A DNA stretch of 64,000 nt from Spirochaetaceae bacterium (GCA_015493635.1 WGCU01000079.1:23674-87673); one strand, 5' to 3'. Positions 15,719-45,057 are shown, counted from the stretch's first letter. Notes: generated by a model from the letters alone, not told the origin. Numbers and translations: made by a program.

Positions 15719-15745
15719 GCTTTTAGCAATCGGTGTTAAACCAGA

Positions 15746-17366: not shown

Positions 17367-17384
17367 TATTCGATTCTTCGGAGT

Positions 17385-19689: not shown

Positions 19690-19707
19690 AAGGGAGATGA
19701 ACTGAAA

Positions 19708-20901: not shown

Positions 20902-20959
20902 TTTTTTAATGACATAACCCGGGTTGTATGGTAGAATATTCTTTTTACAAGGATTTGGT

Positions 20960-21283
20960 ATGGCAAACGATGACAGAACTAAAAACGATCTGAGGGCAAA
21001 TATTCTGAAAGCACTGGCTAATCTGACCCGGGTTTGTATAATCGAGCATCTTCAGGACAGCCCTTACAACGTAACCGAATTATCCCGTCTTCTTAAAGAA
21101 TCCAGTTCTATAACATCCAGGCATCTGAATGTATTGAAGAATGCAGGTCTTATTGAGCAGGAGAAGAGGGGCACGACGGTTATCTACTCACTGGCAAGTA
21201 AAGGAATTCCGGATATACTGGAGTCTGTAGATGAAGTAATAAAGATGAACTACGAGAAATACCGGGCTTTTTTCCCGCAGTAA
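20960..21283 (+). CDS. ArsR/SmtB family transcriptional regulator
   Basis: HTH LANLTRVCIIEHL...ELSRLL...SRHLNVLKNAGLI. AGGA RBS before ATG 20960. Confidence 0.8.
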   Translation: MANDDRTKNDLRANILKALANLTRVCIIEHLQDSPYNVTELSRLLKESSSITSRHLNVLKNAGLIEQEKRGTTVIYSLASKGIPDILESVDEVIKMNYEKYRAFFPQ

Positions 21284-21319
21284 AAAAGCAGGGGAAAAGG
21301 AAAAGGTTCCTATACATGG

Positions 21320-21350
21320 AAAAGGCTGCCGTGAAGGCAGCCTTTATATG
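21320..21350. terminator. Bidirectional rho-independent terminator
   Basis: AAGGCTGCC-gtga-AGGCAGCCTT hairpin, same stem family as 17334..17366. Confidence 0.65.
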
Positions 21351-21363
21351 TTTTACATTGATA

Positions 21364-23993: not shown

Positions 23994-24038
23994 AATGTTC
24001 CTCCTTCGATAACATAATTACGTATATTGTGAGAAACC

Positions 24039-24067
24039 ATTATACTCCCTTAGGTTTTGCAAGTCAA
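24039..24067 (-). promoter_or_regulatory. sigma70 promoter of the preT-preA operon
   Basis: Minus strand TTGACT (24067..24062), 17 nt spacer, TATAAT (24044..24039). About 45 nt leader to the preT ATG. Confidence 0.6.
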
Positions 24068-24200
24068 AGAAATTAATTCCTCTGGCAGGGTTATATCAGC
24101 GTTAAATTTGTGTTCAGGCCAAAAGAGGAAACGTACAAAGATTGACATCCGGTCAAGAGCACGTGATAGGATGAGATACTTTCAAGAACAGGGGGATAAG

Positions 24201-25461: not shown

Positions 25462-26361
25462 TTATGGCGTCTGCTGTGGTCTGTCCGGTACTGCTGCAGC
25501 TGGTCTTTTTTGTATTATAAAGACCGAAAGGATAACGGTGAACACACCTATAAGTGTTGGAATCCCCGGCCGTTCACCGAGAAAGAGAAATGCAAGAGCA
25601 AGCCCGAATACGGGAATAAGCATCTTGTAGGATGTAGCGGAAGTTACAGGCATCCGGACAAGTGCCCGGTTAAATGCAAGGTAGGTAAGTGATGTCCCGA
25701 TAACACCGAGGTAAAGGATCATTATGATGGAAAAAGGGGGAAGTGATAAAATCTGAAACGGATTCTGTTTTCTTACTGTATTGATAATGAGAATGAATGT
25801 CGTTCCTGAAACCATGGAAATCCAGGTCGGGATAAGACTTCCGTACCGGACTGCGAATTTCTTGATAAGAATGCTGTAGAGACTGAGAGAGAAAGAGGCT
25901 CCGAGGAGCAGCAAATTTCCGAGAACAGCCGGACCGCCGAGAGCAAGTGCCCGGAAATTGCCGTTTGTTACAACAAGAGCGACACCAAGGATCCCTATAA
26001 GAATACCGGATATTTTTTTTCCTGAAAGAACCTCTGCAATCAGCAGGGGGCCGAGGATTGCGGTAAAAATAGGCTGTGTGTTTGTCAGGAGTGCTCCGTT
26101 TGCCGCAGTAGAGAGTTTTATGCCGTAAAACAATCCGGCGGAGAAAAGGGTAATGCCAATAATGCCAAGGAGTGAGATAGAAAGGACTTCCCTTCCTGTG
26201 AGAGGTTTCTGCTGCCGGTTTAATTCCTTGATGAAGAAAGGTGTTAACGGTATGAAACCAAGGAAGTAGCGGTAGAATGAAAGGACAAGGGGGTCAATAT
26301 CGGTAACGACATATTTGATAATAGGGTAGAAGGTAGACCAGATAAGCATAACGCCCACCAT
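25462..26361 (-). CDS. DMT superfamily (EamA) transporter
   Basis: 299 aa, 10 TM, two EamA repeats. Confidence 0.8.
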   Translation of the reverse strand: MVGVMLIWSTFYPIIKYVVTDIDPLVLSFYRYFLGFIPLTPFFIKELNRQQKPLTGREVLSISLLGIIGITLFSAGLFYGIKLSTAANGALLTNTQPIFTAILGPLLIAEVLSGKKISGILIGILGVALVVTNGNFRALALGGPAVLGNLLLLGASFSLSLYSILIKKFAVRYGSLIPTWISMVSGTTFILIINTVRKQNPFQILSLPPFSIIMILYLGVIGTSLTYLAFNRALVRMPVTSATSYKMLIPVFGLALAFLFLGERPGIPTLIGVFTVILSVFIIQKRPAAAVPDRPQQTP

Positions 26362-26487
26362 GACGGCCGGCCAAAAAAGGTTTCTATTCTGCAGGGGGGT
26401 TCTCCTCTATACGTGTTCCGTTTACTCTACCTCCATAATGCCCAGGCGTCAAGGAAATAACGGAACGCTGTTTCATAATTTTTTTTC

Positions 26488-26517
26488 TTGACAGATGAGA
26501 AAAACTGAAGCTATAAT
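26488..26517 (+). promoter_or_regulatory. sigma70 promoter for the CN-hydrolase and permease genes
   Basis: TTGACA (26488-26493), 18 nt spacer, TATAAT (26512-26517). Confidence 0.6.
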
Positions 26518-26556
26518 TACTTTTTGTTACAATTTTATAAATTTAAGGAGAGATAA

Positions 26557-27420
26557 ATGTCCAGAATTGTTAAATGCGCTCACATTCAGGCTTCCAACCC
26601 GAAACATGATGGCACGGTAGCTGAAATAAAAGAGGCAATGATCCAGAAACATATACCCCTCATTGAGGATGCGGGGAAGAAGGGTGTGCAGATACTGTGT
26701 CTCCAGGAAATATTCTACGGACCGTACTTTTGCGCGGAACAGGATGTTAAGTGGTATCAGTCTGCGGAACCTGTACCCGGACCGACAACAAACCGGATGG
26801 CGGAGTATGCCAAGAAGTACAATATGGTAATGGTTGTACCGGTTTATGAAGAGGCTCAGGCCGGTGTTTACTACAACACGGCAGCGGTTATTGATGCCGA
26901 CGGAACGTATCTTGGAAAAATGAGAAAGATTCAGATTCCTCATACCTGGCCGGGATTCTGGGAGAAGTTTTATTTCAAACCCGGTAATCTGGGCTTTCCG
27001 GTATTTCAGACAGCCTATGCAAAAATCGGCGTTTTTATCTGCTATGACAGGCATTTCCCTGAATCAGCCCGATGCCTGGCACTGAACGGAGCTGAAATTC
27101 TCTTTAATCCGTCTGCAACAACAAAGGGAAAGTCCCAGTATCTGTGGGAACTTGAACAACCTGCTTCCGCTGTTGCGAATGGTGTATTTATCGGTGCAAA
27201 CAACAGGGTAGGCCTTGAAAAACCATGGGAGTTCGGTGAGTTTTACGGTTCAAGTTATTTTGTTGATCCCCGAGGTAAGATACTGGTTAAGGGTTCAGAG
27301 GATAAAACCGAACTGGTAGTAGCTGATCTCGATCTTGATGTTATCCGGGAAGTACGGGATGGATGGCAGTTCTTTAGAGACAGACGGCCTGAAATGTACG
27401 GCGAGATCTGCAAAGCATAA
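26557..27420 (+). CDS. Carbon-nitrogen hydrolase (nitrilase superfamily), putative beta-ureidopropionase / N-carbamoyl amidase
   Basis: 287 aa with an E...K...C catalytic triad context (…ILCLQEIF…, …CYDRHFPE…). Confidence 0.8.
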   Translation: MSRIVKCAHIQASNPKHDGTVAEIKEAMIQKHIPLIEDAGKKGVQILCLQEIFYGPYFCAEQDVKWYQSAEPVPGPTTNRMAEYAKKYNMVMVVPVYEEAQAGVYYNTAAVIDADGTYLGKMRKIQIPHTWPGFWEKFYFKPGNLGFPVFQTAYAKIGVFICYDRHFPESARCLALNGAEILFNPSATTKGKSQYLWELEQPASAVANGVFIGANNRVGLEKPWEFGEFYGSSYFVDPRGKILVKGSEDKTELVVADLDLDVIREVRDGWQFFRDRRPEMYGEICKA

Positions 27421-27496
27421 TTTTTTAGCGCATACTTAAGACAGCAGCGGGTGTGTTACATGGAAGCTGCTGCTTAATAAAAATAACGGAGGAAAT

Positions 27497-29014
27497 ATGA
27501 GCGGAAACGGAAAAAAATCGAGTTGGGTTATATACCCGATTGGTAGCAAGCCTCATATGGGACTTGCCTTTCTTCTGGGATTACAGCAGTACCTTACCAT
27601 GTTTGGTGCTACTGTACTCATCCCCTTTATCGTAGGCGGAGCAATGAAAATGCCGCAGGACCAGCTGGCACTTCTTATCTCTACGATGTTCTTTGTGTCT
27701 GGTATTACAACCCTTCTGCAGCAGTCTCCCCTTGGGAACAGACTGCCGATTGTTCAGGGTGGTACCTTCTCATTTTTAGGGCCTATGTTTGCCATTGTCG
27801 GCATGGTAGCAGCCAAGAAACTTGGATGGCAGGTTATGATTCAGCAGGTTAGTGCTGCAGTCATGTTTGCTTCTTCTTTTGAAATTATACTTGGGTATAC
27901 CGGTCTTATGGGGCTTATCAAACGGGCTATCAGCCCTATAGCTATTGCTCCGACTATTGCAATGATCGGACTTGCACTGTACGGAATCGGAGCTCCCTGG
28001 ATGGCAGGGAACTGGGTTATCTCTCTGACAACCCTTACGGTACTTGTTTTGTATTCGCAGGTTTTCTCCCGGAAATCAAAAGTATTTTTACTTTTTCCGG
28101 TACTGCTTGCCATATTAACAGGATGGATACTGGCTCTCATTGGAACAGCATTGGGATGGATTCCAAAAGGGAATCCCGCCAACCTTGCCGATGGTATTGG
28201 TCTTATAAAAGCAGCTCCCTGGATTTCTTTCAGGCCTATGCTTCCTTTTAAATGGGGATTTCCTCAGCTTAACGCGATAACCCTTGCAGGATCTCTCGGG
28301 ATGCTGGCCGGGTATCTCGGTTCCATGGTTGAGTCCATTGGTGATTACTATGCATGTGCACGAATGGCTGAAGCCCCCGTACCAACAGAAAAAATGATCT
28401 CCAAGGGTCTTGGTGCAGAAGGTCTTGGTTGTTTTATAGCAAGTCTGTTTCAGACTGGTAACGGAACAACTTCCTATTCAGAAAATATCGGTTCAATCGG
28501 TCTTACCCATGTAGCCAGCCGCCGTGTTATCAGGGCTGGTGCTGTAATCATGCTGGTACTTCCTCTGTTCGGTAAGTTCGGTGCTGCTCTTGCAACTCTT
28601 CCTCATCCGGTAATCGGTGCAATGTTTGTCGGTATGTTCGGTCTTATTGCAGCGGTTGGACTTTCCAATCTGCAGTTTGTAAACCTTAACAACTCCCGCA
28701 ACCTTTTTATTGTTGGGCTCTCCTTCTTTGCCGGGTTAAGTTTCCCTGCTCAGTTTAATGCTCATGCAATAAGCTGGGGGACCTCCGGTTCTCTGGTAAA
28801 TGTACTGGGAGCTATTCTTCAGACAATTCTTACCACCGGTATGGCGGTAACCGCAATTGTTGCAATTACCCTTGATAACCTTATTCCAGGGGCAACGAAA
28901 GCGGAGCGAGGGCTGGAGTACTGGGAAAGCGAAGCCAGTGACGAAGCCTGGGAAAAAGCTGAAGCGGAATGGGCCAAGATGGCTATTGGTGAAGAAATTC
29001 CTCTTTCACAGTAA
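27497..29014 (+). CDS. NCS2-family nucleobase:cation symporter (uracil/xanthine permease)
   Basis: 505 aa, about 13 TM, xanthine/uracil permease family signature region. Confidence 0.85.
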   Translation: MSGNGKKSSWVIYPIGSKPHMGLAFLLGLQQYLTMFGATVLIPFIVGGAMKMPQDQLALLISTMFFVSGITTLLQQSPLGNRLPIVQGGTFSFLGPMFAIVGMVAAKKLGWQVMIQQVSAAVMFASSFEIILGYTGLMGLIKRAISPIAIAPTIAMIGLALYGIGAPWMAGNWVISLTTLTVLVLYSQVFSRKSKVFLLFPVLLAILTGWILALIGTALGWIPKGNPANLADGIGLIKAAPWISFRPMLPFKWGFPQLNAITLAGSLGMLAGYLGSMVESIGDYYACARMAEAPVPTEKMISKGLGAEGLGCFIASLFQTGNGTTSYSENIGSIGLTHVASRRVIRAGAVIMLVLPLFGKFGAALATLPHPVIGAMFVGMFGLIAAVGLSNLQFVNLNNSRNLFIVGLSFFAGLSFPAQFNAHAISWGTSGSLVNVLGAILQTILTTGMAVTAIVAITLDNLIPGATKAERGLEYWESEASDEAWEKAEAEWAKMAIGEEIPLSQ

Positions 29015-29038
29015 AAGATTTTCTATTGAAAATATTTG

Positions 29039-29076
29039 GAAATGAGGCAGTGTCTACTGTCTCATTTCTTTTTTTA
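29039..29076 (+). terminator. Rho-independent terminator
   Basis: AATGAGGCAG-tgtcta-CTGTCTCATT hairpin plus TCTTTTTTT. Confidence 0.75.
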
Positions 29077-29131
29077 TCTGTATAATTTATCTGTATAATT
29101 TTATTCAATGATATAATTCCGGAGGGTTCGT

Positions 29132-29512
29132 ATGTCTTCTTTTATGCGTAAATTTCTTTATTTTACCCTTGCTTTTCTGATGATTATTGATTTTTATCTT
29201 ATCTTTAACGCGGGAAATCCGAACTCTCTTTTACGGTATCTTATTAAAGATACAGGATACGATGTTACCGTTACCGTATTTGTTTCCATTATAATTGCGG
29301 TGATCTCACTGTTCATGATGGGCGGCAGTAATCAAAATACGATAAAAAAGATGCTGGAAAGGAACGATCAGCATATTTCAGAACTAAAAAACCAAAACAG
29401 GAGTGATGAGGAAATAGCAGAATCCTTTTTAAAGGAGCTGGGCGCTGTAAAGGGTCTGTCTCACTTTATTTTAAAAAAGAGAGTTCTGCGTTATCTCTCG
29501 AAAAGAAAATGA
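29132..29512 (+). CDS. Hypothetical small membrane protein (2 TM)
   Basis: ORF with GGAGGG RBS. No recognisable domain. Confidence 0.55.
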   Translation: MSSFMRKFLYFTLAFLMIIDFYLIFNAGNPNSLLRYLIKDTGYDVTVTVFVSIIIAVISLFMMGGSNQNTIKKMLERNDQHISELKNQNRSDEEIAESFLKELGAVKGLSHFILKKRVLRYLSKRK

Positions 29513-30024
29513 ATATATTAAACGGTGGAAATATAAGTACTTTTGTTATCGGCGGACTTTTTATGGGTTTTGTTCTCTTGATTGCATTCATCAGAAATGT
29601 TGAAGCAAAGAATCTGAGAAAAAAACTTGGAAAAGGTGAAATTCTCATGAGCGGCTTTAATGTTCACTATTACGGGGTTGAATCTGAGCCGAAAATGCCT
29701 TTTAACAGTATGGGCGCTCTCGGTTTAACGAGGGAAGGGCTGTACTACTGTTCACGTTTTTTAAAACGGGAACTTTTTATTCCCGGAAACCAGTTTTCTT
29801 CGATCTCGGTAACTGATGATTTTAAAGGGAAAAATATGTACGGTAATGTTGTTGTTTTTAACTTTATCAATGATAAGGGAGAACGTGACCGGGCAGCGTT
29901 TAGAATACCCTATCCTGAGCGCTGGTCAAAAGCAATTACTGATCTGTTTTTAAAAAAAGGTTCAAATCAGAATATTATCTCCTACGATGTAATCAAGGAT
30001 GCAAAAAAAAAGAAAGGTAACTGA
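29509..30024 (+). CDS. Hypothetical membrane-anchored protein
   Basis: ATGA overlap with the upstream ORF. One TM, then a soluble domain of unknown function. Confidence 0.55.
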   Translation: MNILNGGNISTFVIGGLFMGFVLLIAFIRNVEAKNLRKKLGKGEILMSGFNVHYYGVESEPKMPFNSMGALGLTREGLYYCSRFLKRELFIPGNQFSSISVTDDFKGKNMYGNVVVFNFINDKGERDRAAFRIPYPERWSKAITDLFLKKGSNQNIISYDVIKDAKKKKGN

Positions 30025-30071
30025 TTCAGGAGCGTTTAAATGACAAAATCTGTTCCTGAGAAGTATAAATT

Positions 30072-30887
30072 ATGAGATCTGAAATTTCTGCAGAGTACAA
30101 AGGGTCCTTTCTTGCCAGTGAATCATGGAAGGGTAGGATTCAGTCAATCTATTCAAAGGCGGTAAATCTTTTACACCCTTCGGGGATACTTGTATCGGTA
30201 GTAGCAGGACTCGAAGATATCAGTGATTACGGCCTTGCCGTAAGGGATTTCAATTCCTTTGTTTCAAGGATATCAGGGGACAGCCGGTTCCTGTGGAAGG
30301 GTAGCCGCATTGTCTTTGATGGTGCGGTTCTTGATATGGAGGATGCTGCTGTATGGTCGGGCCGTGTAATACATAATTCGGGGGGATTTCCGGTGGACTT
30401 GATTTCTGAAAAAGAAGCCTTTATCGAACTTGCCGCTGAAGAGGGGTTCTCTCCGCTTGTAACAATGAGAGAGGGAAATCTGTATTCCCGGGCAGCCAGC
30501 AGGGTGCTGAATAATGCGGCCGGATCAGTCAATCCATCTAAAGGTTCAATGCTTGAACTGGGGTCTCTGATTGGTATGGGAGTGGGATTTACCCCCTCGG
30601 GGGATGATTTTCTCACAGGAATAATGCTCTATGAAGCTGTTACAGGAAGAAGATTGTTATCAAAAACTGATATCAGGAAAAATCTTGGCCGTACTACAGA
30701 CGGAGGAAGAACGCTGCTGTCCCTGGCATTGGCTGATTCCTTCCCTTTTTATATGAAACAGTTTGCCGAGGTATTGCATCAGCAAGGTTATTCTCCTCAT
30801 GAAGCTATAAAAAAAGCGCTCAAACATGGAGCTACATCCGGAAGCGATGCCCTTACAGGATTTTTCTGGGCAGCGGAATTAAATTAA
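30072..30887 (+). CDS. ylbF: DUF2877 protein, YlbF/AllH-like (third subunit of the FdrA-YlbE-YlbF oxamate carbamoyltransferase-type complex)
   Basis: 271 aa. GMGVGFTPSGDDFLTG motif characteristic of DUF2877. Confidence 0.7.
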   Translation: MRSEISAEYKGSFLASESWKGRIQSIYSKAVNLLHPSGILVSVVAGLEDISDYGLAVRDFNSFVSRISGDSRFLWKGSRIVFDGAVLDMEDAAVWSGRVIHNSGGFPVDLISEKEAFIELAAEEGFSPLVTMREGNLYSRAASRVLNNAAGSVNPSKGSMLELGSLIGMGVGFTPSGDDFLTGIMLYEAVTGRRLLSKTDIRKNLGRTTDGGRTLLSLALADSFPFYMKQFAEVLHQQGYSPHEAIKKALKHGATSGSDALTGFFWAAELN

Positions 30888-30915
30888 TTATTTTCCCTAT
30901 TTATGCTAAAATAAA

Positions 30916-30944
30916 ATTGACAAGATAGAAAAGTATGGTATACT
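30916..30944 (+). promoter_or_regulatory. sigma70 promoter of the molybdo-hydroxylase operon
   Basis: TTGACA (30916-30921), 17 nt spacer, TATACT (30939-30944). Confidence 0.6.
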
Positions 30945-31081
30945 TATTTTTTGCTCCTGTGAAAAAAATCGACTGATTGGTATTTATAAAATACTTTCGT
31001 CGGTTTTTTTCATTTTTCGTAACAATGAAAGGAATTAAAAAAGGGAGTTGAAAATAAAAAATTTTTTATGGAGGATATATT

Positions 31082-31963
31082 GTGGAAAATTTTCGTTACT
31101 TGAAGCCTGCCGCAATTGATAAGGCTCTTTCCCTGAAAAAAGAGCTTGGCAGTAAAGCACGATTCCTTCTTGGCGGAACAGATTTGTTTATTCAGATGGA
31201 CAAGGGGTTTGTTGTTCCCGAAACGGTGATAGATCTTAAGGGTATTGATGAACTTAAGGGTATCGAAAAGAAGGATGGGTACGTATATGTTGGAGCGAGA
31301 GTTACATGGACTCAATTAATTGAATCTGACCTGATCAGGAAAGAATTCCCGGCACTCTGGGAAGCTTCTGACATCGTCGCATCTGTTGGTGTACGGAATA
31401 CAGGAACCCTTGTCGGGAATATCTGCAATGCTGTTCCTTCTCTGGAAGGAGGCTCTCCGCTGCTGGCATACAACGCAGCTGTTTTGGTAAAGAGTTCCCA
31501 GGGAGAAAGAGAGATCCCGGCAGCTGACTTTTTTACCGGAGTTAAAAAAACGGCACTTGCTGATGATGAGATGGTAACGGGAGTGAAAATTCCTGTTAAA
31601 AACGGTAAATTCGGTGAAGTTTACGTAAAAATGGGAAGATATGAAGGTGAAGATCTTGCTCAGGCAGGTGTTGCGGTTGTTGTTGATGATAAAAATAACT
31701 ACCGGATTGCGCTGAATGCTGTTGCTCCTACTCCTGTACGGGCTGAGAAAGCAGAAGCTCTTCTTTCAGGTAAGAAGCTGGACGAAAGTCTTGCTGAAAA
31801 AGCCGCGGAACTGGCGCTTGAAAGTATTTCTCCCATTTCCGACATTCGTTCAAGTAAGGAATACCGGCTTCATATGTGCCGGGTTATGGTTAAACGTGCT
31901 TTGATGGCAAGTGTTTCCCGTATGGAAACAGGTAAGCCTGCTTTAAACACACGGTTGATATAA
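31082..31963 (+). CDS. Xanthine dehydrogenase family FAD-binding subunit (CoxM/XdhB-like)
   Basis: GTG start after GGAGGA. FAD_binding_5 pattern GGTDL...; 293 aa. Confidence 0.85.
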   Translation: MENFRYLKPAAIDKALSLKKELGSKARFLLGGTDLFIQMDKGFVVPETVIDLKGIDELKGIEKKDGYVYVGARVTWTQLIESDLIRKEFPALWEASDIVASVGVRNTGTLVGNICNAVPSLEGGSPLLAYNAAVLVKSSQGEREIPAADFFTGVKKTALADDEMVTGVKIPVKNGKFGEVYVKMGRYEGEDLAQAGVAVVVDDKNNYRIALNAVAPTPVRAEKAEALLSGKKLDESLAEKAAELALESISPISDIRSSKEYRLHMCRVMVKRALMASVSRMETGKPALNTRLI

Positions 31964-31976
31964 AGGAGTATCTACG

Positions 31977-32453
31977 ATGAATCATACGGTGAAATTTAAC
32001 TTAAACGGTTCTCCTGTAGAAGTACAGGTGAAATCCAATGAGAAGCTGCTGGATGTACTGAGGGATAAACTCGGTGTAACCAGCCCGAAGTTTGGATGCG
32101 GTGTCGGTGAATGCGGTGCCTGTACTGTTTTAATAGACGGTCTTTCGGTACGTTCATGCATAACCTTCGCGGTTGAAGTTGAGGGTAAGAACGTTGTAAG
32201 CCTTGAGGGACTTCAGGCTGATGGTCCGACAAAGATCCAGAAGGCTTTTATTAAAAATAACGCGTTCCAGTGCGGTTTTTGTGCACCAGGATTTGTAATG
32301 AGCGCGACAGAGCTTATTGAAAAGAATCCTTCACCCACAGAAGAAGAAATACGCCATGCTCTGGCAGGAAATCTCTGCCGCTGCACGGGATACAAGAATA
32401 TTGTTGATGCAATGAATGAGGTGTCCCAGGAAAATAAAGAGGAGGGGCGATAA
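31977..32453 (+). CDS. Xanthine dehydrogenase family [2Fe-2S] subunit (CoxS/XdhC-like)
   Basis: CGVGECGACTV and CGFCAPGF cluster motifs; 158 aa. Confidence 0.9.
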   Translation: MNHTVKFNLNGSPVEVQVKSNEKLLDVLRDKLGVTSPKFGCGVGECGACTVLIDGLSVRSCITFAVEVEGKNVVSLEGLQADGPTKIQKAFIKNNAFQCGFCAPGFVMSATELIEKNPSPTEEEIRHALAGNLCRCTGYKNIVDAMNEVSQENKEEGR

Positions 32454-34804
32454 TGAAAGAAGAATTAAAAGTTGTCGGTCATAATGCAGTACGACTCGAC
32501 ATCCTTGAGAAGGTAACCGGCGCCGCTGAATATACGGATGATCTGGCATTCGGGCCAAATCTACTCCATATGGCTGTTCTGAGCAGTCCCCATGCGCATG
32601 CGAAAATCCTCAGTATCGATACTTCGGAGGCAGAAAAACTTCCCGGAGTTCATGCTGTTCTGACGGGAAAAGACTTTCCTGAAAAATTCGGTCTTTATTT
32701 AAAAGACAAATCCATCTTTGCTGTTGACAGAGTACGTCAGGTTGGTGAGCAGGTGGCCGGAGTTGTTGCTTCGACATACGAAATTGCACGGAACGCGTGT
32801 AAACGTATTAAGGTTGAATATGAAGTGCTTCCGGAGATTCATGATCCGTACGATTCCATAAAGGAAGATGCAATTCTTATTCATCCGGATCTCGGAAACT
32901 ATGAAATTGAACCCTGGCTTGACGCGCAGCCGGGTACCAATATTGCCCATTTAAGAAAAATCAGGAAGGGTGATGTTGAAAAGGGTTTTGAAGAAGCGGA
33001 TGTCATTGTAGAGGGAGAATATCATATCCCCCATGTTGCACATACCTGTATTGAGACTCATATCAGTGTATCCAAATTCAGCATGGATGGACGTCTGACC
33101 ATGTGGAACTCTACTCAGTCTCCCCATACACAGCGGAACATTATGGCGCATTCCCTCGGTATACCGCACAAAAACGTCAGGGTTATAGCACCCCCCATCG
33201 GCGGCGGATTCGGCGGAAAAGCCGGTATTTCCATGGAAGTAATGGCTGCTGCAGGTGCGAAAGCGTGTCCCGGTCACCCGGTGAAACTGAGATGGACCCG
33301 GGAGGAAGAATTCTATAATTCTTCCCAGCGGACAGGACTCCGTAACAAGGTAAAGATGGGTTTCAAAAAGAACGGTAAGCTTGTCGCGATAAAGCACCAG
33401 ATGTTCTGGGATGTCGGTGCATCCGCTGAATACGGTTCCAATGTTGTTAACGCAACGGGATTTTCCGCTACCGGTCCATACTATATCCCCAACGTTTATA
33501 TTGATTCCTATGCCTGTTATACCAACAATCCGATTTGTTCAGCATACCGCGGGTTCGGTTACTCTGAATTCTCTTTTGGTATTGAAAGTACCATGGATAG
33601 AGCAGCAAAGAAGATGGGTTTTGATCCTGTTGAACTGAGGAAAATTAATGCCATCAAGGAAGGTGAAGGGGTTGCATACGATGTACCCATGAATCCTAAC
33701 GGGCTTATTGAATGTATTGATAAGGTAGCAAAGGAAATTGAATGGGGAAAGGAAGAAAAATCTGATGATCCCAACAAGATCATTGCGAAAGGGTTTGCTT
33801 CCGTATGGAAAGCTCCGGCCATGCCGGCGAATGAATCTTCCAGTGCCTTTATCAAGTTTTCGGAAGATGGAAGCATCAATGTCCTTGTTTCCGGAATGGA
33901 TCTCGGTCAGGGATTTCTTACTGCCATGGCTAAAATTGCTGCGGAAGTACTGGGGCTTACTCTTGATAAGGTCCGTGTTGAATTACCCGATACTGACCGG
34001 AATCCCTATGAATGGCAGACTGTTGCTTCCCATGTAACATGGAGCTGCGGTAACGCGGTAAAACGCGCTGCTATTGATGCCAAAAACAAGATTCTGGATA
34101 TTGTTCAGCGTGCTCATTTTATTGACAAGAGTCAGCTTTATCTTGAAGATAACGGGGTTAAATGTACAACCCAGGAATCATTCTTTATTCCTTATTCAGA
34201 CTTTGTCATAACCGGTATTCAGACTGAGCATAACACCTGGATCGGCGGACCTATTCTTGGAAGCGGAATGTTTATGCCTGAGTACACCAATGCCATGGTA
34301 AATCCGGAAACCGGTCTTGGTGGGCATCCAATGGTTCATTATACCGTTGGTGCCGGTGCGGTGAAAATTGAGATTGATAAGGAAACAGGCCGGATAAAGG
34401 TCCTTAAGATGGCAGAGGCCTTTGACCTCGGAAAGGCTATAAATCCCGACCTTGCCAAAGATCAGATTGTCGGTGGTTTTGTTCAGGGAATGGGAACCGC
34501 GTTATGGGAAGAATGTATCTTTGATGAAAAAGGCAAGATGCTTAATGACGGATTTACCGATTACAAGATCCCTACAATTCTTGATGTTCCCCGGGATATG
34601 AATCCAATTCTTGTAGAAGTTCCCCAGCCTGACGGACCTTATGGGGCTCGGGGACATTCCGAGCATACGATGATTCCTGTCATGCCTGCTGTAGCCAATG
34701 CAGTGGCAAACGGTCTCGGTGTCAGGATTACCGATGTACCGGTAACCGCGGAAAAGATTGTCATGAGAATGGGAAAACCGGAGTTTATGGAAGAGAAAAA
34801 ATAA
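32453..34804 (+). CDS. Xanthine dehydrogenase family molybdopterin-binding large subunit
   Basis: 783 aa. Ald_Xan_dh_C / C2 domain pattern. Start overlaps the stop of the FeS subunit. Confidence 0.9.
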   Translation: MKEELKVVGHNAVRLDILEKVTGAAEYTDDLAFGPNLLHMAVLSSPHAHAKILSIDTSEAEKLPGVHAVLTGKDFPEKFGLYLKDKSIFAVDRVRQVGEQVAGVVASTYEIARNACKRIKVEYEVLPEIHDPYDSIKEDAILIHPDLGNYEIEPWLDAQPGTNIAHLRKIRKGDVEKGFEEADVIVEGEYHIPHVAHTCIETHISVSKFSMDGRLTMWNSTQSPHTQRNIMAHSLGIPHKNVRVIAPPIGGGFGGKAGISMEVMAAAGAKACPGHPVKLRWTREEEFYNSSQRTGLRNKVKMGFKKNGKLVAIKHQMFWDVGASAEYGSNVVNATGFSATGPYYIPNVYIDSYACYTNNPICSAYRGFGYSEFSFGIESTMDRAAKKMGFDPVELRKINAIKEGEGVAYDVPMNPNGLIECIDKVAKEIEWGKEEKSDDPNKIIAKGFASVWKAPAMPANESSSAFIKFSEDGSINVLVSGMDLGQGFLTAMAKIAAEVLGLTLDKVRVELPDTDRNPYEWQTVASHVTWSCGNAVKRAAIDAKNKILDIVQRAHFIDKSQLYLEDNGVKCTTQESFFIPYSDFVITGIQTEHNTWIGGPILGSGMFMPEYTNAMVNPETGLGGHPMVHYTVGAGAVKIEIDKETGRIKVLKMAEAFDLGKAINPDLAKDQIVGGFVQGMGTALWEECIFDEKGKMLNDGFTDYKIPTILDVPRDMNPILVEVPQPDGPYGARGHSEHTMIPVMPAVANAVANGLGVRITDVPVTAEKIVMRMGKPEFMEEKK

Positions 34805-34807
34805 AGC

Positions 34808-34839
34808 AGTCACTCTTATTTTAGAGTGAGCTGTTTTTC
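34808..34839 (+). terminator. Rho-independent terminator/attenuator after the large subunit
   Basis: TCACTC-ttatttta-GAGTGA hairpin plus GCTGTTTTT. A second GC-rich hairpin at 34877-34900 lacks a T-run. Confidence 0.55.
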
Positions 34840-34923
34840 ACAAAAGGTGACGGCAGTTTATGCTGTCATCAAATCGAAGCCCCTCGAAGGAGGGGCTTTA
34901 CCGATTACGTATCAGGAGGAATT

Positions 34924-36483
34924 GTGAAACGAGTATTAGTTGAAAAAGATTCGTATTATGACTCTGTATTCCTAATGTTGATTAACCGTGAGGTTAAAGA
35001 GATTGAAGGTGTTACAGATGCTGTTGTATCAATGGGTACCGATGTAAACGTGACGCTGCTGAAAGAAACAGGGCTGGCAGACAAAGAAATTGAGGGGGTT
35101 ACTCCCAACGATCTCATCGTAGCCGTTGAAGGGAAGAGTGATGAGGTTGTTGAAGCTGCAATTGCCAAGGCAAAAGAGCTTCTTGATCAGAAGAGCTCCG
35201 CAATGGATGAAAACGGCGGAACAAAAATTTACAGCCTCGAAGGGGCGCTTGATGTTGTTCCGGACGCAAACCTGGCTATCATATCACTTCCCGGAGAATT
35301 TGCTCCGCGGGAAGTAAAAAAAGCCTTACGCAGCGGACTTCATGTTATGCTTTTTTCTGATAATGTATCTGTTGAAAGTGAAATTGAGCTGAAAAACCTT
35401 GCAAAAGAGAAGGGCCTTCTTATGATGGGGCCTGACTGTGGTACTGCTATTATAAATGGAAAACCCCTCTGTTTTGCGAATGTTGTCAGACCCGGTGATA
35501 TTGGGGTTGTTGGAGCTTCAGGGACTGGTTTGCAGGAAATTACCTGTACCATTGAAAAATTCGGTGCAGGTATTACCCAGGGAATAGGTACCGGCGGCCG
35601 TGATCTTAAAAATGCCAAAATAGGCGGGACCATGATGCTTATGGGGATTGAGGCCTTGAAGAATGATGATGCGACTAACGTTATCGTTGTTGTATCAAAG
35701 CCTCCCGCTGAGGAAGTTGCTGTTAAGGTAATTGATGCTCTGCGAAAAACCGGAAAGCCTTCGGTAGTTCATTTTATCGGTATGGAACCGGGAAAGCAGG
35801 AAGGAAACCTTTACTACGCGGGTAATCTGGAAGAAGCTGCCGGTATGGCCGCTGCTCTTTCTAAGGGAGAAACCTACCAGAAGCGCACCTATACCCTCGA
35901 CCGCTCGGAAATTGATGCCATCATTGAACGGGAAACGAAAAAGATGTCCTCGAAACAAAAGTATATCCGGGGACTCTATACCGGCGGTACCCTTGCGGAT
36001 GAAGCGCTTATCATGTTTGACCGTGAAATCGGGGGAATTTATTCGAACAATCAGTCTAAAGAAGCGTTCATTCCTCCGGATCCCAACAAATCAGTAAAAC
36101 ATACCATTGTTGATCTTGGGGATGATGTTTATACGGTCGGCCGTCCTCATCCGATGATTGATCCTAGTACCCGGGAAGACCGGATTCGAATTGAGGCTGA
36201 AGATGAAGAGATGGCAGTTATGTTGCTTGATATCGTTCTTGGATATGGCTCCCATGAGGATCCTGCCGGTGCTATACTTGATTCTTTGCGTGATGCCAAG
36301 AAAAAAGCAGCGGATAGAGGCGGTTATCTCTCAATAGTAACCTCAATTACCGGGACCGAGGGGGATTTCCAAAATATATACGAGACAAAAAAGAAACTGG
36401 AATCTATTGGATGTGTTGTGATGCCTTCTAACTTTCAGGCTTCAACACTGGCGTTGGAAATTATGAGAAAGGTGGAAAAATAA
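34924..36483 (+). CDS. fdrA: FdrA-family protein (succinyl-CoA-synthetase-like; AllF-type subunit)
   Basis: 519 aa. GTG start after AGGAGG. CoA-binding/ligase-CoA domain pattern of FdrA. Confidence 0.85.
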   Translation: MKRVLVEKDSYYDSVFLMLINREVKEIEGVTDAVVSMGTDVNVTLLKETGLADKEIEGVTPNDLIVAVEGKSDEVVEAAIAKAKELLDQKSSAMDENGGTKIYSLEGALDVVPDANLAIISLPGEFAPREVKKALRSGLHVMLFSDNVSVESEIELKNLAKEKGLLMMGPDCGTAIINGKPLCFANVVRPGDIGVVGASGTGLQEITCTIEKFGAGITQGIGTGGRDLKNAKIGGTMMLMGIEALKNDDATNVIVVVSKPPAEEVAVKVIDALRKTGKPSVVHFIGMEPGKQEGNLYYAGNLEEAAGMAAALSKGETYQKRTYTLDRSEIDAIIERETKKMSSKQKYIRGLYTGGTLADEALIMFDREIGGIYSNNQSKEAFIPPDPNKSVKHTIVDLGDDVYTVGRPHPMIDPSTREDRIRIEAEDEEMAVMLLDIVLGYGSHEDPAGAILDSLRDAKKKAADRGGYLSIVTSITGTEGDFQNIYETKKKLESIGCVVMPSNFQASTLALEIMRKVEK

Positions 36484-37910
36484 TGGATGTAACCAACATT
36501 AATAAACTTTTTAAAGAGGACCTTTCCGCAGTAAATCTCGGTCTGGAATCATTTGCAGAGAATTTACGGGATGAAGGGGTGAAAGCTGTTCAGGTACTGT
36601 GGAAACCGCCAGCAGGGGGAAATAAGGAAATTGCCGGTCTTCTAGACAAGCTTGATACGATACGGACAAAAATAGATATAGACGCTGCCAACAAAAAAGC
36701 TGCCGAAATAATCAATAACGGGAAACCGACGGTTATTGATATTTATACCGCGGGAAAGGCGATTCCCGGAATGAGGAAGAACCTTCTTCTTCATGCGGGC
36801 CCTCCTGTCACCTGGGATAGAATGAGCGGCCCGACACGGGGAGCTGTTATCGGCGGACTTGTATATGAGGGGCTTGCAAAAACCTATGAAGATGCAGAGA
36901 AACTTGCTGCTTCCGGTGAAATAGATTTTGAACCCTGCCATGACCATGGAACGGTTGGCCCTATGGCAGGAATTGTTACGTACAGTATGCCGGTATGGAT
37001 TCTTGAAAATAAAACATACGGAAATAAATCTTATGCTACCCTTAATGAGGGTCTTGGAAAAGTGCTCCGTTATGGTGCATACGGTCCGGATGTTCTGGAA
37101 AAACTGAAGTGGATGGAAACAGATCTTGCTCCCATCCTTAAAGAAGCTCTTGATCTTCATGGGGAACTGGACATGAAGAACATCATTGCCCAGATTCTTC
37201 AGATGGGGGATGAGGGTCATAACAGAAACAGAGCCGGTACGTCTCTCTTTATCAGGGAAATGGCTCCTTATCTGGTACAGCTTGACGAACCGAAAGAAAA
37301 GATTGTCAAGGTCCTTGAATTCCTCAACGCCAACGATCACTTCTTTCTGAACCTTTCCATGCCCTCCGCAAAATGTATCATAGACGCGGCCGCAGGTATT
37401 GAAGGAAGTTCAATTTGTACTACGATGGCGAGAAATGGAACGGATTTCGGTATCAGAATGTCCTGTACCGGCAGTCAGTGGTTTACCGCTCCGGCACCCA
37501 TGGTTGACGGGCTTTATCTTCCCGGTTACTCGGCGGAGGATGCGGCACCTGATATCGGTGATTCAACCATCACGGAAACCGTCGGTATCGGCGGCTTCGC
37601 TATGGCAGCTGCACCGGCAATTGTCAAGTTTGTCGGCGGTACACCGAATGATGCCCTTAATGTGACAAAGCGGATGTATGAAATAACTGAAACAGAAAAC
37701 AAGATTTTTCAGATCCCCGCACTTGATTTCAGAGGAACACCCACAGGGATTGATATTCTGAAGATCGTTGAGAAGGGGATACTTCCCGCGGTTAATACCG
37801 GTATAGCCCATAAAAAACCGGGGATCGGGATGGTTGGTGCAGGTCTCGTAAAACCGCCGGAGAAATGTTTCAACGATGCCTTTAAGGCATTTGTAGAAAA
37901 GTACTCGTAA
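36483..37910 (+). CDS. ylbE: DUF1116 protein, YlbE/AllG-like subunit
   Basis: 475 aa. Translationally coupled to fdrA (ATGA-type overlap at 36483). Confidence 0.75.
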   Translation: MDVTNINKLFKEDLSAVNLGLESFAENLRDEGVKAVQVLWKPPAGGNKEIAGLLDKLDTIRTKIDIDAANKKAAEIINNGKPTVIDIYTAGKAIPGMRKNLLLHAGPPVTWDRMSGPTRGAVIGGLVYEGLAKTYEDAEKLAASGEIDFEPCHDHGTVGPMAGIVTYSMPVWILENKTYGNKSYATLNEGLGKVLRYGAYGPDVLEKLKWMETDLAPILKEALDLHGELDMKNIIAQILQMGDEGHNRNRAGTSLFIREMAPYLVQLDEPKEKIVKVLEFLNANDHFFLNLSMPSAKCIIDAAAGIEGSSICTTMARNGTDFGIRMSCTGSQWFTAPAPMVDGLYLPGYSAEDAAPDIGDSTITETVGIGGFAMAAAPAIVKFVGGTPNDALNVTKRMYEITETENKIFQIPALDFRGTPTGIDILKIVEKGILPAVNTGIAHKKPGIGMVGAGLVKPPEKCFNDAFKAFVEKYS

Positions 37911-37982
37911 GTTTTTAAGGATAATTGCCGGGGGTTGAATCTCCCGGCTGCTATAATAAATATTTTTCATAAGGAGAAACAA

Positions 37983-38855
37983 ATGAAAGCAATTGATTTA
38001 ACCATTCCATTAGGTATTGGAACACCTCCATGGCCTACATACATTCCCCTGCAGGTGCAGTACTTTAAAAGACTTGCGCCGAATGGAGCGAACGGCCAGG
38101 TTGTAACTCACTCAAACCACATAGGAACACACCTTGACGGGGAAATCCATTTCTATACACCCGGTAAGGATATGGCTGAACTGCAGCTGGATTATCTTAT
38201 GCACGATGCGGCTATCGTTGACCTTTCTGATGTCTGCGGTGATTACGATGTGTATACATCACAGATGGTGGAAGAACGGGTAGAAGTCAAGGAAGGAGAT
38301 ATCCTTATTATTCATACCGGGTATCACCACTACGGCTGGGATCAGTCAGGTGCTGATGAGATCAGATACATGATCAAACATCCCGGACCAAACAGGGAAT
38401 TTGCGGAATGGGCAAAAAAGAAGAAACTCCGATGGATCGGAGTAGACTGCGGTTCTGCTGATCATCCCATGAATACCAAAATCAGGGACTGGATGCCGAA
38501 AGAGGCTAAGCACTGTGACGCACACATGAAAGAAAAATACGGCCAGGGCCTCGATGAGATCTTTGCTGAAGACAAGTATCAGCTGATGCACCTTGAAATG
38601 TTTGATCATCATATTATCCATGCTGAATGTATGGGCGGTGATATTGACCTGCTCCTGAACCAGAGAGTAACCGTTGGATGTTTCCCCTGGAAGTTTGTTG
38701 ACGGTGAAGCAAGTATTTCCAGAATTGTAGCCTTTGTAGATGATGACCGGTACGAGAAACTGATGGCGAAAAAAGCTAAATGTGAACTGACAAAATTCGG
38801 TGATATTGACGGCGGAAAGAATGCATGGCTCCATGAAGAGGCAAAGAAGAAATAG
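37983..38855 (+). CDS. Cyclase-family hydrolase (kynurenine formamidase / isatin hydrolase-like)
   Basis: HIGTHLDGEIHF metal-binding motif (HxGTHxDxPxH). AAGGAG RBS before ATG 37983. Confidence 0.8.
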   Translation: MKAIDLTIPLGIGTPPWPTYIPLQVQYFKRLAPNGANGQVVTHSNHIGTHLDGEIHFYTPGKDMAELQLDYLMHDAAIVDLSDVCGDYDVYTSQMVEERVEVKEGDILIIHTGYHHYGWDQSGADEIRYMIKHPGPNREFAEWAKKKKLRWIGVDCGSADHPMNTKIRDWMPKEAKHCDAHMKEKYGQGLDEIFAEDKYQLMHLEMFDHHIIHAECMGGDIDLLLNQRVTVGCFPWKFVDGEASISRIVAFVDDDRYEKLMAKKAKCELTKFGDIDGGKNAWLHEEAKKK

Positions 38856-38869: not shown

Positions 38870-38914
38870 TTTTTTTACCGCACCGTGCCCTGCAGCGCTG
38901 GTGCGGTTTTTTTG
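38870..38914. terminator. Bidirectional rho-independent terminator
   Basis: ACCGCACC...GGTGCGGT stem flanked by T-runs on both strands. Confidence 0.75.
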
Positions 38915-39331
38915 TCAGGCAGTATTATCGGGGTTGTCTCCTGCCTTTTCCAGCAGGTGAAGGAACCGGCACTCTTCCACTCCCCTCCCGGGGCTGCAGA
39001 AGGTGGAAAATTTCTTAAGAGCATTCATGATACGGTTTAATTCCGCTATGCGATGTTCAATGTCCCTTATCTTTTGCAGCGCTTTTTTATGCACTGTCTC
39101 ACAGGAGCTTCCTGGTGCAATTTTCATCTCACTGAGCTCTTTGATCTCCTTCAATGAGAAACCGAGTTTTTGGGCATTCCTGATAAATTTCAACTGTTCC
39201 ACAGTAGTACTGTCGTAGTCTCTGTATCCGTTAGCCCGTTTCCCGGGAACCGGGATAACCCCCTTTTCCTCATAGAACCTGATAGTGCGGGATGAAACCC
39301 CGGTTAGTTGTGAAAGTGTTCCTTTTGTCAT
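38915..39331 (-). CDS. merR: MerR-family regulator with Hg(II)-type cysteine triad
   Basis: HTH TIRFYEEKGVIP. Cysteines SSCET and FCSPGRGVEEC in the spacing of MerR C82/C117/C126. GGGGTG RBS before ATG 39331. Confidence 0.75.
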   Translation of the reverse strand: MTKGTLSQLTGVSSRTIRFYEEKGVIPVPGKRANGYRDYDSTTVEQLKFIRNAQKLGFSLKEIKELSEMKIAPGSSCETVHKKALQKIRDIEHRIAELNRIMNALKKFSTFCSPGRGVEECRFLHLLEKAGDNPDNTA

Positions 39332-39385
39332 TTCTACACCCCTGTACTCCAACAATACGGTATCAGGCTTAAAGTATCCAGTAGT

Positions 39386-40720
39386 TTATCCGGCACATCA
39401 GCTTAAAGAATGAATGTCTTTGTCAAAGACAAGAGTTGCGAGTTTAATGCCTTCCACTGCAGTCAGATAGGGGAAGTATGTGTTAACAAGATCGTTGGTG
39501 CTCATTCCGGCCATGATGGCAATGGTAAGCGTCTGTATCATGTTCCCGGCATCCCTTGCCAGAATTTCGGCACCAATAAGAAGATCTGTATCAGCATTTT
39601 TAACCAGAATGATGGTCCCGAACGTGTCATTGTTTGCGAGACCGTAGGGCGTTTCCGCCATGGGAAAACGGGACACTGAAGTGCGTATACCGGCTTTGTC
39701 TGCTTCCCGTTCTGTTATTCCAACCCGTGCAATCTGCGGGTGGGTAAAGATAACATGAGGAACTGCGTGATAGGAAAGTGGAACGGGAACAGGGGAAAAT
39801 GCGTTTGAGACTGCGGTTTGTCCTTCTTTGGCAGCGACATAGACAAGTCCGGGAGTGGCGCATACATCTCCCGCCGCGTAGATATCAGGATTTGAAGTAC
39901 CAAGATACTCATCGGTATATATATGGTTTGCCGTATCGGTTTCAACCCCTGCTGCTGACAAATTCAGCGATTCAGTATTCCCCGTTCTTCCTGTGGCAAA
40001 AACTATCTGTTCTGCAGCAATGGTTTTTTCTTCTCCGTTTTTTGTATACTTGATGGATTTTTTACCTTTGTCAGGGAAGGCCTCGACAAGGGTAGTGCCG
40101 GTAATAACGTTAATTCCTGGTCAACGAGTACCTTTTCTATGGAAGAACTTATTTCAGTATCGAACTGAGGAATAAGATGAGTACTGCGCTGGAGAATGGT
40201 TACGTCAACGCCAAGCCGGGCAAAAGCCTGACCCAGCTCCAGAGTAATAAAACGTCCTCCGACAATAATAAGAGATTCGGGCAGTGTATCAATGAACAAT
40301 ATACCGGTACTGTCCAGCGGATCTATTGTTTCTATTCCGGAAAAATTCGGGATAAAGGGTTTGGAACCTGTTGTAATGATGAATTTCCTGCCTGTAATAG
40401 TACTGCCATTGGATAATACTATTGATCGTTTGTCTATAAACCGGGCTGTTTCATGGAAATAGGATACCGTATCTCTGTAATTATCAAGCACGTGAATATA
40501 TTTATTCTTTCGAAGACTGCCGATAAGCCGGTCTCTTCCGTTGGCAATAAAACTCCATGTGCTGCCTGAAAAAGCTTCACTGATAATATATTTGGAAGGC
40601 ACACATCCTCCATTTCCTCAATAAGGGCAGCGCTTTTTCCTCCTTCAGCGCGTTACCCACTGTCTACTCGCAATGGATGCAGCTCATGCCGTCAATTTTT
40701 AGTTTTTTATAGCTGATCAT
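39386..40720 (-). pseudogene. merA: Decayed merA (mercuric reductase) with in-frame TGA at both redox-cysteine positions, one frameshift, one TAG and an N-terminal internal deletion
   Basis: Track ORFs 40003..40602 and 39398..39961 are two frames of one pyridine nucleotide-disulfide oxidoreductase. HMA-domain start MISYKKLKIDGMSCIHCE (ATG 40720, AAGGAG RBS) ends at TAG 40666..40664. Redox motif reads ...PY-TGA-GNGGCVPSK. C-terminus reads LS-TGA-CAG then TAA at 39388..39386. A 1-nt deletion near 40117-40123 breaks the frame. Confidence 0.7.
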
Positions 40721-45044: not shown

Positions 45045-45057
45045 TTTTTATTTCTCC

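Follow-up and report, generated by a model that had tools for sequence, protein, structure and literature searches.

The DNA analysed here is a window of 64 kilobases (kb) from a Spirochaetaceae bacterium (GCA_015493635.1, WGCU01000079.1), and the subject of this article is the gene cluster that occupies positions 30072-38855 of the window, on the + strand. The cluster brings together the three subunits of a molybdenum (Mo) hydroxylase of the xanthine dehydrogenase (XDH) family, homologues of the Escherichia coli proteins AllF, AllG and AllH (also named FdrA, YlbE and YlbF) and a metal hydrolase of the cyclase fold. The association of the XDH, AllFGH-like and cyclase genes is not due to chance. 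The function of the cluster is proposed from comparative genomics, which favours a pyrimidine, uracil, over urate or nicotinate as the substrate.

An original prediction made from the sequence alone had described these genes as a single-strand array, and all seven were located where it had placed them, with strong Pfam matches:

30072-30887, + strand: AllH-like (DUF2877) subunit (PF11392, 61 bits)
31082-31963, + strand: flavin adenine dinucleotide (FAD)-binding subunit of the Mo hydroxylase (PF00941 and PF03450)
31977-32453, + strand: 2x[2Fe-2S] subunit of the Mo hydroxylase (PF01799 and PF00111)
32453-34804, + strand: molybdopterin subunit of the Mo hydroxylase, or Mo subunit (Pfam matches of 277, 222 and 102 bits)
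34924-36483, + strand: AllF/FdrA-like subunit, succinyl-coenzyme A (CoA)-synthetase-alpha-like (NCBIfam NF004760, 532 bits, cut-off 433)
36483-37910, + strand: AllG-like (DUF1116) subunit (PF06545, 331 bits)
37983-38855, + strand: cyclase-fold metal hydrolase, proposed ring-opening amidohydrolase (PF04199, 107 bits; revised start, open reading frame (ORF) from 37935)

Two details of the cyclase gene had to be corrected. Its start had been placed at 37935, a TTG that sits within an intergenic hairpin; the most likely start is the ATG at 37983, which has a GGAG ribosome-binding site 6 nucleotides (nt) upstream and gives a protein of 290 residues, the length of its relatives. The metal motif, given as HxGTHxDxPxH, reads HIGTHLDGEIH, with Glu in place of Pro. 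The base composition of the region is unremarkable, so that the cluster is not an island in the compositional sense.

Conservation of the Cluster

The distribution of the cluster was explored by a search anchored on an AllG alignment, which provided 80 loci in species genomes of GTDB; these have an identity of 55% or more to the query and represent the best 80 of at least 581 AllG matches. Three contigs obtained by look-ups of exact proteins were added, for a total of 83 loci. ORFs were called crudely and clustered, and the recurrent clusters were named with Pfam. Most of the genomes are metagenome-assembled genomes (MAGs) and many loci are shorter than full length; the 46 full-length loci, which extend about 10 kb to both sides of AllG, contain the genes listed below, the counts for divergent families (AllH and the Fe-S subunit) being lower bounds:

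AllF: 46 of 46
Cyclase: 45 of 46
AllH: at least 39 of 46
Mo subunit: 34 of 46
FAD subunit: 31 of 46
Fe-S subunit: 31 of 46
NCS2 permease: 30 of 46
Amidase or carbon-nitrogen hydrolase (CN-hydrolase): 19 of 46
Thiolase or a 231-residue protein (h231): 14 of 46
Carbamate kinase: 8 of 46

By gene content, the AllH-AllF-AllG-type enzyme and a dedicated cyclase-fold hydrolase are the invariant core of a widespread, presumably catabolic cluster, usually joined by what is annotated as a three-subunit Mo hydroxylase and a uracil-type permease. The cyclase gene directly follows AllG in nearly all loci, and the XDH block shares its strand with AllG throughout but may stand on either side of it, upstream in 25 loci and downstream in 18. 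The carriers belong to at least 15 phylum-level groups, including Spirochaetota, Bacillota (Clostridia, Negativicutes), Bacteroidota, Chloroflexota, Thermotogota, Caldisericota and Verrucomicrobiota as well as Myxococcota, Acidobacteriota, Cloacimonadota, Ignavibacteriota, Chlorobiota and others; AllG homologues at 68-96% identity include Spirochaetota MAGs. The genes form a tight string of nine on a Spirochaeta isovalerica-like contig (L088), where 13 nt separate the Mo gene from the AllF gene. The proposal that a Mo hydroxylase, a cyclase-type hydrolase and the FdrA/YlbE/YlbF homologues act in one heterocycle pathway gains support from this recurrence, and the juxtaposition, whose restriction to a single genome would have spoken against that proposal, is widespread.

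The spacer between the Mo and AllF genes, for which a double hairpin had been predicted, holds three hairpins in the fold of 34805-34923, and the XDH genes are preceded by signals of their own:

30917-30944, + strand: sigma-70-like promoter, TTGACA-16-TATACT with extended -10 TG, before the XDH genes (scan; conserved in the related locus L003)
30962-31010, + strand: leader hairpin set between A7 and U7, resembling a terminator or attenuator, in the interval between this promoter and the FAD gene (fold)
34803-34837, 34846-34870 and 34872-34906, + strand: three intercistronic hairpins between the Mo and AllF genes (dG -53 kcal/mol, z = -7)
34837-34864: weak promoter-like site in the Mo-AllF spacer (scan)

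The three stable hairpins, the weak promoter-like site among them and the separate promoter and leader of the XDH genes would suit a chance adjacency, in which the XDH genes are unrelated to the AllFGH and cyclase genes and the hairpins at 34803-34906 are a full terminator between independent units. This explanation is extremely improbable, since 34 of the 46 full-length loci keep the association across the phylum-level groups despite rearranged gene order, while the paralogous loci of E. coli (allFGH and yahEFG) have neither XDH nor cyclase genes close by. The short gap on contig L088 further indicates that the hairpins of the window are no argument for unrelated functions. Recent transfers of a single mobile element, which alone would lend a chance adjacency weight again, are argued against by the divergence of the sequences and of the gene orders.

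The AllFGH-Like Enzyme and the Cyclase

The AllH protein of the window is 24% identical to E. coli AllH/YlbF. Its AllF protein shares 39% identity with the AllF of E. coli and 44% with YahF, and for its AllG protein the value is 46% with E. coli AllG and with YahG alike. The window proteins thus resemble AllFGH no more closely than they do YahEFG, a paralogue yet to be characterised, and are not orthologues of E. coli AllFGH; a neighbour-joining tree groups the cyclase-linked AllG proteins in a clade that leaves out E. coli AllG and YahG. CoA-binding and CoA-ligase domains were recognised in AllF by Pfam. In three loci (L018, L023 and L028) AllF and AllG are fused into one protein of ~1040 residues, which fits their action as one complex. 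E. coli AllFGH converts oxalurate and phosphate into carbamoyl phosphate and oxamate (PMC11326118), and a metagenomic paper reports that allFGHK adjoins biuret/triuret genes in nitrifiers (PMC12625717), which fits a general role of the family on acyl-ureas.

The cyclase is very conserved: residues His43, His46, His50, Asp52 and His56 are invariant in 32 homologues, the median identity across phyla is 67% and the subfamily comprises 2890 database proteins at E <= 1e-5. A Foldseek search with its predicted model gave a probability of 1.0 to 3KRV, 4M8D and 4CO9, with matches to isatin hydrolase and kynurenine formamidase; this AlphaFold model (pLDDT, the predicted local distance difference test score, of 74) is of low quality in residues 11-52, where the metal motif lies, and serves for fold assignment only. 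Against the arylformamidase equivalog TIGR03035 the cyclase scored 43 bits, below the cut-off of 223.

Permeases and Accessory Genes

The permease encoded upstream of the cluster in the window is the following:

27497-29014, + strand: divergent NCS2/NAT nucleobase permease, motif ENIGSIGLTH with Glu first (Pfam, 252 bits)

Its identity to UacT and UraA of E. coli is only 26%. In the NAT family, Glu at the first position of this motif identifies uracil carriers, and Gln in its place identifies carriers of xanthine/urate; the motif of E. coli UraA is ENIGVMAITR, and the motifs of XanQ and UacT begin with Gln. The Glu-first signature (ENTGAVALTG or ENIGVMAITK) is present in 22 of the 26 cluster-linked NCS2 proteins with a recognisable signature. 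These permeases share 33-70% identity with UraA (two Negativicutes loci reach 70% and 65%, Anaeromyxobacter 52%) and 23-30% with XanQ/UacT, and their best NCBIfam model is that of uracil permease, all of which points to uracil. In L003 the gene for a UraA-like permease, with 40% identity to the E. coli protein, immediately precedes AllH (L003:2264-3505), at a place where the window has a 47-nt spacer (30024-30072).

Two modules recur downstream of the core and were found together in only one full-length locus. The first, present in 15 loci, consists of an amidase-signature enzyme and a family III CoA-transferase. The closest solved structure of the amidase is malonamidase E2 (E = 3e-45), ahead of GatA; the presence of the equivalent of malonamidase Arg158 was set aside as non-discriminating, since this residue presumably belongs to a GGSxRxP signature that amidases share in general. 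The nearest relatives of the CoA-transferase are YfdE and SUGCT, enzymes of the dicarboxylate type, and it scored 388 bits against the 'CoA:oxalate CoA-transferase' model (cut-off 522). The second module, in ~14 loci, encodes h231, a thiolase-like protein and a DUF35 protein. A 253-residue protein of the window (14957-15718) is 35% identical to the h231 family; it gave a weak GNAT match (E = 1.5e-5) and no sequence match in the PDB.

A CN-hydrolase takes the place of the amidase in 7 loci. In L001, genes for a carboxyltransferase, OAD gamma, a biotin carrier and OAD beta stand between the cyclase and XDH genes, and an OAD-beta gene occurs near the cyclase in two further loci (Bacillota). The malonamidase-like amidase, the dicarboxylate CoA-transferase, these genes of a Na+-pumping (methyl)malonyl-CoA decarboxylase type and the thiolase/DUF35 module point to malonyl chemistry. 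Cytosine-deaminase-like genes after the cyclase in the XDH-containing loci L007 and L031 point to uracil, and the carbamate kinase genes, together with the activity of E. coli AllFGH, point to carbamoyl phosphate. PucR-type regulators (14 loci), a MocA-like protein, XdhC and YqeC are also recurrent.

A variant cluster without XDH genes was observed in Clostridium, Lacrimispora and Lachnospiraceae (L052, L054, L057 and L060). Its gene string begins with AllH-AllF-AllG-cyclase, an 8-oxoguanine-deaminase-like protein, a cytosine-deaminase-like protein and DUF6198, and continues with a short-chain-fatty-acid transporter, a carbamate kinase (called in three of the four loci), a Gln-type NCS2 permease and PyrF. 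The substrate of this variant may be an amino-substituted ring.

Part of this evidence could be accommodated by a pathway of purine type, in which the Mo enzyme would oxidise a purine- or imidazole-type ring, the cyclase would convert an oxidised five-membered ureide, for instance a parabanate-like one, into oxalurate, and a true oxamate carbamoyltransferase would release oxamate, to be metabolised by deamidation to oxalate and activation to oxalyl-CoA. The only characterised member of the AllFGH family acts on oxalurate (PMC11326118), the best matches of the CoA-transferase are YfdE and the oxalate model, PucR regulators are present and the permease of the window favours the xanthine-permease model. 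However, genes of the allantoin pathway are not recurrent among the 83 loci, no recurrent census family is a candidate for oxalyl-CoA decarboxylase, and the modules with biotin/Na+ decarboxylase and thiolase genes do not match the C2 chemistry of oxalyl-CoA. Since, in addition, most permeases are UraA-like with the Glu signature and the AllG clade leaves out E. coli AllG and YahG, this version is considered quite improbable.

The Molybdenum Hydroxylase

The Mo subunit forms a clade of its own, which branches apart from E. coli XdhA. Its scores against xanthine dehydrogenase models were 508, 488 and 429 bits (cut-offs 780, 916 and 784, respectively) and it is about as distant from the 4-hydroxybenzoyl-CoA reductase model (512 bits, cut-off 995); none of the NCBIfam equivalog cut-offs is reached, and the FAD subunit (200-209 bits) likewise remains under the cut-offs of the XdhB models. 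The closest solved structures of the Mo subunit are 4-hydroxybenzoyl-CoA reductase and nicotinate dehydrogenase. The catalytic Glu, equivalent to bovine Glu1261, is residue 737 and is kept in 37 of 37 cluster-linked homologues. The position of bovine Glu802 is occupied by Ala in 38 of 39 cluster-linked sequences and that of Arg880 by Ala in all 39. A reading of these residues as evidence against xanthine was rejected, since E. coli XdhA has Gln and Ala at these positions and thus also lacks both xanthine-binding residues.

Genes for SelD, a selenium carrier, a cysteine-desulfurase-like protein and a YqeB-like XdhC lie beside the cluster in L088 (13609-20819), and YqeC and MocA-like genes adjoin it in three Clostridia loci (L030, L070 and L079), two of which also have XdhC. 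YqeC and SelD are markers found near selenium-dependent nicotinate or purine hydroxylases, and the Mo hydroxylase may be selenium-dependent in some lineages.

The structural relatives of the Mo subunit also agree with another explanation, according to which the substrate would be a different N-heterocycle, of nicotinate, pyridone or pterin type, and the AllFGH-like enzyme would produce an acyl phosphate or acyl-CoA through AllF instead of carbamoyl phosphate. The CoA-binding and CoA-ligase domains of AllF, the recurrent CoA-transferase and thiolase genes, the linkage of carbamate kinase in a minority of loci and the YqeC and SelD markers close to some clusters agree with it as well. On the other hand, 30 of the 46 full-length loci have NCS2 permeases, mostly UraA-like; carbamate kinase is recurrent; cytosine-deaminase-like and PyrF genes appear in variants; and the AllFGH family has so far been tied to ureide catabolism (PMC11326118; PMC12625717). 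With these observations in view the explanation seems unlikely, if still worth considering. Of the substrates originally suggested (urate, barbiturate or nicotinate), the pyrimidine direction is retained, and urate and nicotinate are less favoured on account of the permeases and the accessory genes.

A Proposed Route for Uracil Breakdown

It is an even question whether the cluster encodes an anaerobic route of uracil breakdown through barbiturate, ureidomalonate and carbamoyl phosphate, which is the interpretation put forward here. A little more tentatively, this could be a new energy-conserving 'oxidative' pyrimidine route of anaerobes, in which the Mo clade would be a uracil dehydrogenase, the cyclase would replace the unrelated barbiturase, the AllFGH subfamily would phosphorolyse ureidomalonate and a carbamate kinase would yield adenosine triphosphate (ATP). 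Such a route would extend over the 15 or more phylum-level groups of the carriers, with gut Bacteroides, Clostridia and Negativicutes among them.

In this scheme, uracil, and perhaps thymine, would be taken up by the cell and hydroxylated at C6 by the Mo hydroxylase to give barbiturate, whose ring would be opened by the cyclase-fold hydrolase. The product would be ureidomalonate (H2N-CO-NH-CO-CH2-COOH), which exceeds oxalurate by one CH2. By established chemistry, barbiturate is hydrolysed to an acyl-urea, and compounds of this class are the substrates of AllFGH. The AllFGH-like enzyme would then phosphorolyse ureidomalonate into carbamoyl phosphate and malonamate, copying the E. coli oxamate carbamoyltransferase, and carbamate kinase would convert carbamoyl phosphate into ATP, NH3 and CO2. 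As originally predicted, tblastn found no carbamate kinase gene in the window, so that the enzyme would be encoded elsewhere in the genome. Malonamate would be deamidated by the amidase or the CN-hydrolase, and malonate would be activated to malonyl-CoA and decarboxylated to acetyl-CoA; the reductive pyrimidine pathway encoded nearby could likewise end in malonyl-CoA.

The scheme would explain why the cyclase is always present, as the ring must be opened before AllFGH can act, and why the hydroxylase usually is, as hydroxylation at C6 makes the ring hydrolysable and its product an acyl-urea. Places are also found in it for the permease of uracil type and the carbamate kinase, as well as for the amidase related to malonamidase, the CoA-transferase for dicarboxylates and the biotin/Na+ decarboxylase.

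Several observations weigh against the uracil route. All of its enzymatic steps are deduced, the substrate of the Mo clade being a prediction, and the residues of the Mo subunit do not discriminate among the candidate substrates; moreover, 12 of the 46 full-length loci have no XDH genes within 10 kb. The scheme does not account for the roles of the CoA-binding domain of AllF and of the h231/thiolase/DUF35 module. The best named relatives of the CoA-transferase act on oxalate, the classical link of PucR regulators is with purine catabolism, and carbamate kinase occurs in only 17% of the full-length loci and not in the window. The permease of the window scored 219 bits against the xanthine-permease model and 85 against that for uracil permease, and the UraA-like permease located upstream of AllH in L003 is absent from it.

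If the proposal is correct, functions could be given to a large subfamily of AllFGH proteins, to the very conserved cyclases and to a distinct clade of XDH enzymes, and candidate genes for uracil dehydrogenase would become available. As the carriers include gut-associated Bacteroides, Lachnospiraceae and Negativicutes, the route could affect the turnover of uracil analogues such as fluoropyrimidines. The presence of the cluster in a cultured species, Spirochaeta isovalerica, makes the proposal testable now.

Genomic Surroundings and Transcription Signals

The region around the cluster contains further genes and signals:

26488-26517, + strand: sigma-70-like promoter, TTGACA-18-TATAAT, 12/12, before the CN-hydrolase/permease pair (scan)
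26557-27420, + strand: CN-hydrolase (Pfam CN_hydrolase, 212 bits; N-carbamoylputrescine-amidase model, 244 bits, cut-off 410)
29038-29069, + strand: terminator-like hairpin downstream of the permease gene, with a 14-bp stem and then a T run (scan)
29132-30024, + strand: two overlapping small predicted membrane proteins of 126 and 171 residues, between the permease and AllH
38877-38913, + strand: intrinsic terminator, 8-bp GC-rich stem followed by T7, at the operon end (sequence; the scan flags 38890-38906)

The upstream neighbours are, as had been noted, the permease and pyrimidine genes, which form a complete reductive set. The intervals 13003-25448 and 43659-46383 hold the reductive pyrimidine genes together with aminotransferase, aldehyde dehydrogenase and carboxyltransferase genes. 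The set comprises a PreA equivalog (566 bits, cut-off 335), a PreT-like protein, a dihydropyrimidinase (575, cut-off 393) and carbamoylases of the M20 and CN-hydrolase types (carbamoylase family, 361, cut-off 204). The M20 protein scored exactly at the cut-off of the 'allantoate amidohydrolase' subfamily model (452/452 bits) and reads, from its context, as a carbamoylase of the beta-ureidopropionase type. With the aminotransferase, a CoA-acylating aldehyde dehydrogenase (SauS-like, 577 bits, cut-off 600) and an MmdA-like carboxyltransferase, the neighbouring genes could convert beta-alanine through malonate semialdehyde into malonyl-CoA. If the uracil route exists, the oxidative and reductive routes of this spirochaete could run in parallel as a redox-balancing pair; speculatively, the oxidising and reducing branches side by side would balance electrons in a pyrimidine fermentation.

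The CN-hydrolase of the window could be a decarbamoylase of the beta-ureidopropionase type, in the reductive pathway, or perform the amide-hydrolysing step of the cluster, its identity to the CN-hydrolase encoded after the cyclase in 7 other loci being only 36%. The two small membrane proteins gave no Pfam or NCBIfam match, and their occurrence is confined to the closest relatives.

The transcription signals suggest several units across the region. A stretch of about 100 nt with the XDH promoter and its leader (30905-31010) is ~100% identical in L003, the AllG of which is 89% identical to that of the window, while the neighbouring spacer has diverged; this stretch may be a new attenuator or leader. 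In the Mo-AllF spacer of L003, hairpins 1 and 2 differ in sequence, although their stems are still possible by alignment reading, and hairpin 3 is conserved; the three may either terminate transcription or only stabilise the transcript, both being compatible with the sequence. Rfam matched neither the leader nor the hairpins (whole window at gathering thresholds; 26300-35000 with permissive settings). The palindrome of hairpin 3 occurs only once in the window and was discarded as a repeat element, and a consensus search for sigma-54 promoters gave 2 matches, about as many as the 1.8 expected.

Beyond the operon end, on the - strand, a MerR regulator lies beside a pyridine-nucleotide-disulfide oxidoreductase split into at least two ORFs, with its N-terminal part gone (38915-40602), which looks like a pseudogene. 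In L003, where the cyclase and a BTAD gene are 86 nt apart, no MerR or oxidoreductase genes are found between them.

Comparison with Known Systems

No description of an XDH-AllFGH-cyclase cluster was found in the searchable full-text literature. E. coli AllFGH is made up of the same three protein families, and the reaction predicted for the cluster is of the same type, phosphorolysis of an acyl-urea into carbamoyl phosphate and an amide. The predicted substrates differ, being ureidomalonate for the cluster and oxalurate for the E. coli enzyme. The E. coli genes have an adjacent carbamate kinase, which only some cluster loci carry and the window lacks; the cluster, in turn, adds the cyclase and usually the XDH genes and a uracil-type permease, and has no allantoin genes.

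The cyclase shares with isatin hydrolase and kynurenine formamidase, of the PF04199 superfamily, the fold and the His/Asp metal motif, and isatin hydrolase likewise opens a cyclic amide. With ~15% identity and TM-scores of ~0.5, and ~80 residues longer than kynurenine formamidase, it nevertheless belongs, unlike these enzymes, to a distinct, highly conserved subfamily tied to AllG.

Among the anaerobic purine routes, the clostridial xanthinase pathway, whose decarboxylase reportedly depends on prenyl-FMN (FMN, flavin mononucleotide), was set aside as an explanation, since nothing like that decarboxylase is found among the annotated recurrent census families. The xanthinase and reductive urate (2,8-dioxopurine) pathways resemble the cluster in being anaerobic nucleobase routes with an XDH-family enzyme (PMC12507026; bioRxiv 10.1101/2025.04.24.650524), and in the reductive urate route, too, ATP is obtained by way of a carbamoyltransferase and carbamate kinase. 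The gene set of these routes is different, with a YgeW-type carbamoyltransferase, YgfK, SsnA, HyuA and YgeX, and FdrA, DUF1116 and the cyclase are mentioned neither in PMC12507026 nor in bioRxiv 10.1101/2025.04.24.650524.

The closest parallel to the proposed chemistry is the aerobic oxidative pyrimidine pathway of Rhodococcus and Corynebacterium, which uses uracil/thymine dehydrogenase, barbiturase and ureidomalonase. It shares with the proposed route the intermediates barbiturate and ureidomalonate and a first step carried out by a Mo/FAD/Fe-S hydroxylase (PMC3758960). The ring is opened in the aerobic pathway by an AtzD-family barbiturase of 'Toblerone' fold, whereas an enzyme of cyclase/isatin-hydrolase fold is proposed for the cluster; no AtzD-family barbiturase or hydrolytic ureidomalonase was present among the Pfam-scanned ORFs of the window or the recurrent census families. 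The ureido group is hydrolysed to urea in the aerobic pathway, while in the cluster it would be conserved as carbamoyl phosphate, and the hosts of the cluster, unlike those of the aerobic pathway, are anaerobes. A 2025 paper lists, as routes of pyrimidine catabolism, the reductive, oxidative, Rut and URC pathways (PMC12507026); if the proposal is correct, they would be joined by a variant widespread among anaerobes, in which the ureido group is a source of ATP.

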